From: Raja brachyura
Taxonomy: Eukaryota
NCBI GenBank assembly: GCA_963514005.1
Contig: OY740788.1
Span: 40,486,001-40,550,000 of the forward strand
Length of the DNA: 64,000 bases
Direction of reading: 5' to 3'
The translations under genes and the position numbers were made by a program. Positions 49,011 to 60,290 of this stretch are shown one piece after another. The notes under the pieces are model-generated. The model was not told the origin of the DNA, did not search any database, and saw nothing but the letters and a program-made list of their open reading frames with translations. Each line of letters opens with the position of its first letter. The stretch's first letter is position 1.

Positions 49011-50058
49011 TCAGTCTCTTGCCTCAGTGTCTTGCTTTCTTTCTCCCCCATTCTCATCTTCACCACCAACATTTTCATCGGGAATTGGATAAATACCTAA
49101 AGGCAAAAATAAATTGCAGAGTTACAGGGAAAGGGCAGGGGAATTTGACTAATTGGATAGCCATTTCAAAGGGGTTGGCAGAGCTGTGATGGTCAAAGTG
49201 CTCCCTTTTAGTTTTCTATGAACTAACTGCTACAAAGTTATCACAATGAAAATAATTGGTAAAATAAAATAATTCATCTAGTACTGTGTGATATGTTTTG
49301 AATTGTGTTAGTGCTCAAAACTTCTCCATGTAGTATCCATCATTTTGTTTCCATAGGCTACAGATTTTTGGACCCTTCTCAGCTTTCAAAATCGTATTTT
49401 TCAAATTATTACTGAAATATATCTGTGTTCTTTTGGAACATTTTTCTATTATAAGTGTCAAGATAAAGCTCTTATTGTGGTTCTCCCTCCTCATTCTAAC
49501 AACGTTCCATGCAATGAAAACTTGTGGGCCAGTATAAGTTGCTTTGAACATGTGGCATTGGATTTGAGGTGAGATCAATTTTGGCGAGTGTATACTCTTC
49601 TTCTTATCGAGTCCACACACAAGATTAGAAGTTGTTCAGCCAGAGCTGAACACACTTCTCGGCATCTGCATACAATGGTGTCTGTCTTGTTGCTTCTTGT
49701 GCATGGGTGTGGAAAGATTGGTGGAAACAGGGTTGTGACGTGAACGCTCTTTCCTTGACCCCAGTGTATACTCTGAGCAAAGCAAAAGGGTTCCTTGAAG
49801 ATCTTCACAATGCTTGCTTTGGTGTGCCTTGGTATTACATTTACATGTAATAAATGTAATACCAAGGCGCACCAAAACATTTACATTTGCTCATAGTTGG
49901 ATTCCCATCTTTCACAACGTTGCAGATACAAAATCAAGATGTGTCAATGCTCAGGCCAGACTGAAGCCACCATTTTGGAGATGTCCAGTGCTATAATTTC
50001 TGCGCTAAAAACATTAATTTCTTATTATTTTAACATGCAGAGAGGACACAGGATAATA

Positions 50059-55942: not shown

Positions 55943-56079
55943 TTTCATAACAAATTTTTATTTCACATAACTTAATATTGCAAGTTGCAAATGCGTCAAA
56001 TTGTAGGCAGGGTTTCATTAGCGCCACAATCTTTTTATATGCACAAGTTTGGCTCAATACTGGACATCTGGTGCTTTCT

Positions 56080-56113
56080 GGTCTGAAGAAGGGTCTCAAC
56101 CCGAAACGTCGCC
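56080..56113 (+). ncRNA. Minimal type-I hammerhead ribozyme motif
   Basis: GGU-CUGAAGA-A-GGGU(CUCA)ACCC-GAAAC-GUC-GCC. Both catalytic boxes, stem II and the GUC cleavage triplet are present. Confidence 0.65.
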
Positions 56114-56210
56114 TATCTCCTTCGCTCCTTAGATGCTGCTGCACCCGCTGAGTTTCTCCAGCTTTTTGTGTAACCCTCGATTCTCCAGCATCTGCAGTTC
56201 CTTCTTTAAC
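56080..56210 (+). mobile_element. Solo Penelope-like terminal repeat, 131 bp
   Basis: Perfect 16-bp TSD ACATCTGGTGCTTTCT at 56064-79 and 56211-26. Confidence 0.85.
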
Positions 56211-57007
56211 ACATCTGGTGCTTTCTTGTTGGGTTGATTTCCAGCCTCTTGTTTGTATATTGCATTTCAGAAGATGCCCAAACACACAATGGCCATAACT
56301 GGCCTGACTTTAATTCCTTGTCGAGCATTGATTCTAATTGGTCACTTTTAAGAAATAATTTGACCTTTAAAAAGGTAAATCTGACAACTTTATAGTGCTT
56401 TAAAAGCTGATGGGAATTCAGGGTGAACATTTTTGAAATACTACATACATGAATATGTTCTATACTTCAATTTTCTTGAGTAAAGAATACATCATATTCT
56501 GATGGACAGCAAAATTAGAGTCAGGAATGATTAATGATGTCAAATATTAGAGAAAGGGGCTTCTGATGAATTAACTGGATTTTTTAAAAAAACTCTTCAT
56601 CCTAACAATATATCTGAGATTACTTTAGAGATGTAAATTAATATGGCTTCCCAGCAAAAACATTTTCTTTAATTTTCTTTAACTTCACATGGACAGTTTA
56701 TATGCATTGGAAGACCCCACATTATTACCGTACTTACCTTATGAAAAATTATTTGTTGGTTTGCCTTATTTGAAATATCCTTTCCAAATCGAAGTAATCA
56801 AAAATGGCTGATCTCCCATTTCAGTTTGAAAGGATTCTGTGACAAAGTCATTTCAATTCCTTAATATTAATCGTTTATCAGATAGCCATTTATATGAGTC
56901 GTAGGATGACTTGATAGAAGTATATTTAAAGTCCATTTAAATAAAATTCACACCTAAAGGATTTCCTAGTGGAATAATATGTAATGTTTTTTAAATGGTG
57001 CATCATA

Positions 57008-59354: not shown

Positions 59355-60290
59355 ATTAGTTTATTATTACCAAGTAAACCGAAAAACAGTGAAACCTTCT
59401 TTGTGTGCTTTCCAGACAAATCATATATATGAGGACAATCAAGCCATAAACAAGTACGACAAGTAGTGCAAAGAGAAATGCGTGCAGAATATAGTGTTAC
59501 AGCTTACCGTGTTACAGTTGTAGAGAAAGTGCAAGTAAAAAGTAAAAAGTACAATATCGCAAAGAGGTAGATTGGGAAACCGCACCTGAACTTATGGAAA
59601 GACCTGTCAGTAATCTGATAATGTTGCGAAAGAAGCTTCGTTGAATCTAGCTTTTGTATCGTCTGTCTGACAGGAGAGGCGGGTAAAGTGAATGACCAGG
59701 ATGAAAATAGCCTGAGATTGAGTTGCTTATTTTCCTGAGGGGTATGAAGTGTAGAACCACTCCTTTGAGGGGGTGGTGGTAGGGGACACTGGTTGGTTTG
59801 ATGGGTTAGGCTGCATCAGCAACTCTCTGTAATTTCTAGGAAGGAACTGCAGATGCTGGTTTAAACCGAAGATAGACACAAAAAGATGGAGTAACTCAGC
59901 GGGCCAGGCAGCATCTCTAGAGGGAAGGAATGGGTGACGTTTTGGGTCAAGACCCTTTTGAAGAAGGGTCTCGACCCAAAACGTCACCCATTCCTTCTCT
60001 CCAGAGATGCTGCCTGTCCACAGAATACTCCAGCTTTTTGTGTCTGTCCCTCTCATTTCTTGTGGTCTTGAGCAGGGCTGTTGCCAATCCTAGTTGGTAA
60101 AAGGCATTGGAGACATGCCAAAATTCCTTAGTCTTTTGGTGTGCTGTAGATTCAATGTGGTTGGTCCAGGACAAATTATGGTTGGCATTTATGCCTAGGA
60201 ACTTGAACCTCTTGACTTCTCCACATCGGCACCAATGACGCTAACTGGGGCAAGCACGCCACCTCATTTCCTGAAATCAATAACTAGAAA
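59355..60290 (-). mobile_element. Degenerate Rex/Babar-like LINE 3' part, interrupted by a PLE palindrome
   Basis: Tail AGTTTATT at the left. The minus strand reads KFLG..WTNHIEST near 60150-60205. Confidence 0.5.
59839..60047. mobile_element. Head-to-head palindrome of Penelope-like terminal repeats
   Basis: Arms at about 59874-59959 and 59961-60045 are reverse complements, centred on the hammerhead CUGANGA box. Confidence 0.85.

Follow-up and report, generated by a model that had tools for sequence, protein, structure and literature searches.

Copies of an abundant Penelope-like element in Raja brachyura, among them a young insert in a PROX1 intron, often begin at the front edge of a minimal hammerhead motif

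We identified a very short insertion in the last intron of PROX1 in Raja brachyura that, judging from its sequence, almost certainly belongs to an abundant Penelope-like element (PLE). About half of the copies of this element begin at one sharp point, the front edge of a minimal hammerhead ribozyme motif, which likely marks the start of the element RNA. We think it rather probable that the copies consisting of pLTR and tail were formed when RT began at the tail and came off its template at the 5' end, the template being an uncleaved mRNA starting at this edge. Throughout, the window is the whole stretch of DNA that was analysed (64,000 nucleotides; contig OY740788.1, forward strand, positions 40,486,001 to 40,550,000).

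The element type, the ribozyme and the tail are already known. The open literature and supplement text that we searched contain no account of 5' ends piling up at the edge of the hammerhead, and a search of the shark and skate literature returned only hammerhead sharks. The single insert matters little. The family bears on where the mRNA starts relative to the ribozyme in Penelope-like elements, and on whether a minimal hammerhead ever cuts in vivo. Both points can be tested directly here, because the family is young, its 1204-aa ORFs are intact and its base-exact junctions number in the tens of thousands. The family would also explain how minimal hammerheads are scattered through vertebrate introns without harm to host genes.

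A very young insertion

PROX1 exons lie near positions -570 to 330, 9,650 and 19,480 of the window, and the last exon (about 81,780, outside the window) matches human PROX1 (PDB 2LMD, E 1.8e-36). The insert is in sense orientation in the 62-kb last intron. Its features are listed here, with element numbering set to +1 at G56081.

56064-56079, plus strand: left TSD copy, 16 bp; X20 and X23, which have the empty site, contain the sequence once
56080, plus strand: extra G, absent from the element (the family has A); it supplies the third pair of stem I
56081-56113, plus strand: minimal type-I hammerhead motif of the pLTR, with its boxes; features as in PMC4209133
56114-56175, plus strand: remaining pLTR to the short 3' end (TGTGTAACC, about +95), the stop point of tailless copies
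56176-56210, plus strand: PLE tail of about 36 nt, which runs to the long 3' end (+130/+131) and is carried by 37 of the 99 copies sampled
56211-56226, plus strand: right TSD copy, the first A of which is also compatible with element position +131

The original prediction of a perfect 16-bp TSD around a 131-bp insert on the sense strand was borne out. The sequence ACATCTGGTGCTTTCT is present as two identical copies of exactly 16 bp (56064-56079 and 56211-56226) and nowhere else within the window, and the insert between them (56080-56210) is one unit, with no tandem of hammerhead units. Public contigs were aligned on window positions 55945-56900. Those of runs X20 and X23, which carry two other organism labels, pass directly from 56063 to 56211; 147 bases are skipped, with 16 letters common to both sides. 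They have 8 and 10 differences, respectively, from the window in about 810 flank letters (~1%). Contigs of run X19, which may be the source itself, contain both insert junctions with 0 differences. The insertion is real, and it is very young because the empty site persists in two other organisms at this flank divergence.

The hammerhead motif

All parts of the predicted intact minimal hammerhead are present. The CUGAAGA box (56083-56089) is followed by an extra A (56090) between positions 9 and 10.1, and by a 4-bp stem II (GGGU/ACCC, 56091-56094 with 56099-56102) that includes the G10.1-C11.1 pair (G56091-C56102). The GAAA box (56103-56106) overlaps the ACGU palindrome of stem III (56106-56109), the GUC triplet (NUH type) ends at 56110 (C17) with the cut predicted after this base, and GCC (56111-56113) forms the 3' strand of stem I. 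The motif lies inside the pLTR of an RT/GIY-YIG element. The insert had been said to begin exactly at the stem I sequence GGU. It does so by sequence, but the first G (56080) is foreign to the family, in which stem I has 2 bp (U.G, G-C). Thus, the PROX1-intron copy has a 3-bp stem I because of the added 5' G alone. The stem II loop is CUCA in this copy vs CUCG in the family, a change found in 1 of 100 core matches listed.

A profile search had been proposed as a check; the Rfam scan of the window gave 9 matches at E<=1, with hammerhead among none of them. Folding stability for three stretches of the PROX1-intron copy was no better than that of shuffles (z -0.39 to +0.86). Thus, the motif is recognised by its boxes and not by score. 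No two-sided change in stem II was found in 176 ungapped copies or 238 box-defined loci, samples drawn mostly from one young family and partly selected on an exact core. A sister subfamily keeps a stem II pair one-sidedly (U-A to U.G, GGGT/GCCC, 4 loci). At L097, L213, L239 and L240, this subfamily has stem II GGGU/GCCC, a UUCG loop and mostly a GUU triplet.

Minimal hammerheads in the pLTRs of metazoan PLEs (Cervera and de la Pena, 2014, PMC4209133) share the CUGANGA and GAAA boxes, the unpaired base after A9, the G10.1-C11.1 pair, the palindromic 15.2-16.2 and the lack of a loop 3. They too occur mostly as solo copies, attributed there to probably truncated PLEs, and in opposite-strand pairs. 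Unlike those motifs, the one described here has a stem II of 4 bp, a family stem I of 2 bp and at least 30,000 exact copies, and its solo-copy 5' ends are mapped, whereas those in the accessible text of PMC4209133 are not.

The parent element

Over +1 to +130, 129 of 130 bases of the insert are identical to the 3' pLTR and tail of L135, a full-length element in which two pLTRs enclose an open frame of 1204 aa (RT/GIY-YIG), and one 5' G is the sole addition. The proposed minimal type-I hammerhead of a Penelope-like element is upheld by this match. Exact pattern matching across the species' own 2.7-Gb genome gave 30,170 matches for the core 33-mer and 38,779 for a downstream 32-mer (reversed controls, 0 each). 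Ten of the 30 first-listed copies continue upstream into a common 3' UTR and an ORF that has RT and GIY-YIG domains at its end.

The 1204-aa ORF contains the motifs DKG, YLRYIDD and IY..YIGET, and a CX2-5CxxC linker between RT and EN (CNRKRCYTC). Its Pfam matches fall short of the curated cut-offs (RVT_1, 21.5 vs 29.6 bits; GIY-YIG, 19.1 vs 22.6). The linker marks Neptune/Nematis elements (PMC8557442), and sampled vertebrates contain Neptune and Poseidon only (bioRxiv 10.64898/2026.07.22.740005). The element appears to be of Neptune type, the clade being assigned by motif only.

The structural features of the group were also identified: pLTRs, tandems, an optional tail and an inverted 5' copy (L135, L137, L139), with inversions in 34 of the 99 sampled copies. 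Neptune/Nematis EN+ PLEs (Craig et al., 2021, PMC8557442; Arkhipova et al., 2013, PMC3846280) likewise have a single ORF with RT and C-terminal GIY-YIG, the CX2-5CxxC linker, partial tandems, inverted 5' copies, an optional tail and TSDs. Truncation is called frequent in the accessible text of these papers, but is not described as focused on one base. The L139 locus (G000:C18:46,360,000-46,376,300) contains at least four tandem full-length units with a period of 3,965 bp, the first third of the ORF being interrupted, and could be a setting that permits dimeric cleavage. On the minus strand of L135, 35 nt past the 5' tail, the sequence CAAG/GTATGC resembles a 5' splice site and overlaps the first ATG of the PLE ORF.

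A pile-up of 5' ends at the hammerhead edge

We determined the 5' ends of 99 distinct copies by extending each against a real long copy. These copies were recovered from the top 100 entries in the list of downstream 32-mer matches, chosen blind to the 5' end; all lie within the initial 4.1 Mb of one contig and are not a random draw. The 5' end falls in -3 to +3 in 43 copies, +4 to +11 in nine, +12 to +29 in two, +30 to +33 in none and +34 to +64 in seven. The other 38 reach further upstream (six into -10 to -4, six into -70 to -11 and 26 beyond).

Genome-wide, we counted breaks as three non-matching letters followed by 32 matching letters. The values are raw counts of different 32-mers that vary in CpG content, and -3, -2, +2 and +3 were left out. 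There are 23 breaks at -12, 2,615 at -1, 4,294 at +1, 487 at +4, 51 at +26, 54 at +29, 182 at +31, 102 at +33 (many of them one-base deletions), 191 at +35 and 38 at +41. The count at +1 compares with 23-54 at four control positions. Random 5' boundaries, as expected from ordinary truncation, had been named as an outcome that would count against the original prediction; the boundary is strongly non-random. Solo copies with the same 5' boundary and a TSD, which were also to be counted, are represented by 12 of the 99 copies (non-inverted hot-spot units with a TSD of at least 8 bp). Of the 43 hot-spot copies, 22 are inversion arms.

Junction letters at 60 loci are G, GG, GA or pieces of the element itself, and no common 5' leader or 5' exon was found among these 60 junctions. 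The junctions include G/GG/GA additions, re-priming on AGGGTCT and TCTGAA fold-back repeats, and head-to-head pairs are centred on CAG(T/A)CTG. A G precedes +1 in 63 of 100 breaks listed (hand tally; expected 32%, p 5e-10) and AGG in 24 of 100. Among the rows listed elsewhere, G precedes the break in 18 of 100 at +4, 18 of 51 at +26, 7 of 38 at +41 and 13 of 23 at the -12 control, where it is mostly at a palindrome. The excess before +1 is partly due to re-priming on the internal AGGGTCT. Because of this re-priming, the G-rich fillers at other ends (L074, L018, L098) and the G at the -12 control, cap copying is not established. We infer that G56080 is a cap copy, an untemplated addition or a product of re-priming.

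3' ends and the template

Copies stop 3' at one of two fixed ends, about +95 or about +131. In full elements the first ATG of the ORF is 35 nt downstream of the tail. Most of 30 copies spanning the tail-ORF junction (read by eye) leave the ORF at about +180 to +270 and join a second pLTR, which starts near -4 to -1 in 8 of the 30. These jump products include part of the ORF downstream of the tail, and therefore the template was the mRNA (pLTR-tail-ORF) and not a 131-nt RNA. The lower edge of the exit range in L238-L267, which are mostly such products, may mark a bound-protein footprint.

In PAc, a Poseidon PLE of Anolis carolinensis (Frangieh et al., 2024, PMC11167929), two 3' ends also flank a 30-40-nt tail 3' of the hammerhead. 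Internal initiation defines this tail as the stretch between two RT start sites; uncleaved RNA is the main substrate, as for the template here, and RNA past the start sites has to be present. Both target strands are extended in PAc, which fits the head-to-head pairs with one tailed arm that we observed. Unlike PAc, the skate element has a Neptune-type linker, and its tail lies before the ATG, not within the ORF. Neither a 5' pile-up nor a cut-site excess is reported in the main text on PAc.

Origin of the short copies

The fixed ends on both sides suggest a pathway of several steps. The mRNA would start at about A(-1)/G(+1), inside CCAGT/TCAGT, which we take to be an initiator-like word. The endonuclease would nick the target and RT would start internally, at one or the other edge of the tail (+95, +131), by analogy with PAc of the lizard (PMC11167929). 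A partial-tandem transcript would offer two RT start regions (pLTR-tail), the 5' one giving 95- or 131-nt run-off copies and the downstream one long, randomly truncated copies; two start regions per mRNA agree with run-off and long copies being about equally frequent. On reaching the end of its template, the cDNA may gain G's, re-prime on the element, fold back or anneal to a second cDNA, and such events would account for the fillers and the head-to-head pairs. The hammerhead would stay uncut in nearly all insertions. A solo copy would probably be without the downstream RNA needed for a second round. In related systems, the Penelope promoter lies inside the pLTR (PMC2377424), rotifer pLTRs contain initiator-like words (PMC3846280), and capped full-length L1 inserts are marked by an extra 5' G (PMC11702581).

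Counting against a transcription start, the YCAG/T word after a pyrimidine tract equally resembles a 3' splice site. The pile-up could thus be a processed RNA end or an RT road-block (e.g., a 5'-3' exonuclease halted by bound protein, or factors on the pyrimidine tract or 3' splice site) of the same element with the same internal initiation, a reading that we consider unlikely. The pyrimidine tract and CAG immediately before +2 favor it, as does the similarity of subfamilies from -2 on and their divergence upstream (loose ends at L134:5683). In Penelope, the intron ends at helix I (PMC4209133); in D. virilis transcription starts 46 nt before the intron, the 3' end of which abuts the hammerhead (PMC4209133, PMC2377424). 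However, a spliced template would leave a common 5' exon, and the 60 junctions have none. Furthermore, no splice-type joint specific to RNA-labelled runs is among the joints listed (assembled contigs), and the predicted fold is without a stable block at -1. Contigs of runs X1, X2, X4 and X19, aligned on a full ORF and pLTR, revealed neither a start nor an end, and no splice joint that was convincing; the labels of most such runs are guesses. Candidate splice joints near L134:5536 (GT..-type) were rejected, as they are also in a DNA-sized run and look like a CCAGTC micro-repeat.

Does the ribozyme cut in vivo?

Nearly all inserts carry the hammerhead uncut, in line with what PAc would lead one to expect. 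We rejected the idea that cleavage produces the main 5' end, given 0 of 99 ends at +30 to +33 and the 182 breaks at +31 vs 4,294 at +1. A cut at the upstream GUC (+1 to +3) was likewise rejected; it would give ends at +4, where the count is nine times below that at +1.

There is an excess at +31 to +35, where counts are 3-5 times those of neighbours (182 at +31 and 191 at +35 vs 38-54 at +26, +29 and +41). Among the 30 first-listed +31 loci, four are not truncations (L179, L181, L183, L202) and two inversions have both arms at G31. The G31 start is repeated at least five times in L184-L188 and at least four times in L190-L193. That this small excess records rare cleavage in vivo is possible from the sequence pattern, although we lean slightly against it: +35 is as high as +31, palindromes draw inversions at both positions, and +26 and +35 have short arrays as well. 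RNA-seq of the lizard PAc element failed to show hammerhead self-cleavage (PMC11167929). A broader and more doubtful reading is that both RNA ends are recorded. The capped mRNA would start at stem I and give strong-stop-like 95/131-nt inserts (about half of copies), and a class of about 1% starting at G31, some repeating it four to five times per insertion, would be a fossil of self-cleavage in vivo. The repeated loci L184-L188 (G000:C1:74,835,259-574) and L190-L193 (C1:117,724,508-731) consist of 63-65-bp tandem units from G31 to about +92, with junction letters that vary, and are possible products of repeated run-off from a cleaved template.

The unit is probably not independent

The original prediction suggested that the repeat moves as a tiny ribozyme-bearing SINE-like unit. 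Its fixed ends and the TSDs of the 12 non-inverted hot-spot copies would suit a SINE-like or retrozyme-like element that is transcribed and re-mobilised on its own, and PLE pLTRs gave rise to non-autonomous retrozymes (bioRxiv 10.64898/2026.07.22.740005). We regard this as very unlikely because 129 of its 130 bases are a piece of the autonomous element, with nothing foreign except one G. Filler also differs copy by copy, with no common leader in the 60 junctions, and the loop change of the PROX1-intron copy is in 1 of 100 matches listed. Moreover, jump products carry ORF sequence past the tail, and 38 of 99 copies extend further upstream. No tRNA, 5S, 7SL or other SINE head was found by Rfam in the window; the whole unit derives from the PLE.

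Non-LTR retrozymes (bioRxiv 10.64898/2026.07.22.740005) are similarly short and non-coding, carry a type-I hammerhead and are related to PLE pLTRs. They are defined by tandem hammerhead units, whereas here a monomer is identical to part of a living autonomous element. One contig of run X1 joins the tail end to the element start via 38 other letters (depth 759). This may be a short tandem, retrozyme-like unit of a related subfamily, which was not found in the loci examined.

The PROX1 locus

Further copies of the family are present in the window, including the degenerate sense copies that had been noted near 22230 and 59960; both exist, with their catalytic boxes broken.

10372-10739, minus strand: longer tailless copy that carries the 3' UTR upstream of the hammerhead, antisense to PROX1
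22227-22341, plus strand: degenerate copy with both catalytic boxes broken, sense to PROX1
59837-60044, no strand assigned: older head-to-head inverted pair with broken catalytic boxes

The insert is probably inert in the PROX1 intron. We identified 22 family copies in 104 kb around PROX1 (9 plus, 13 minus; no clear strand purge), and only one of the nine plus-strand copies, at 56081, has intact boxes and palindrome. A role in PROX1 control is unlikely because there is no intact sense partner, misfolding is predicted and close relatives lack the insertion. The suggestion that the insert cuts the nascent PROX1 transcript, by itself or together with other copies in the intron, to a degree that matters for the gene is therefore most improbable. 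In its favor, the catalytic residues are all intact on the sense strand, the extra G lengthens stem I and the isolated 37-mer folds as drawn (predicted pair probabilities 0.84-1.0). With 20-150 nt flanks, however, the predicted pairing of stem I drops to <=0.01 and residues of the core find other partners. The ACGU duplex contributes -1.7 kcal/mol, and among plus-strand copies the closest one that has both boxes (66,522) is 10 kb away with a broken palindrome. In published work, monomeric minimal hammerheads were uncut and dimers little cut (PMC4209133), the PAc ribozyme required its protein (PMC11167929), and one of nine Xenopus dimers cleaved (bioRxiv 10.64898/2026.07.22.740005).

Elsewhere in the window, positions 49711-49774 of the minus strand have a weak Rfam match to the CPEB3/HDV-like ribozyme (28.8 bits, below the gathering score of 35), adjoined by a 67-bp hairpin at 49814-49880. 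Positions 17631-18015 form a long, MITE-like inverted repeat that is imperfect and has a 20-bp tandem array at its centre.
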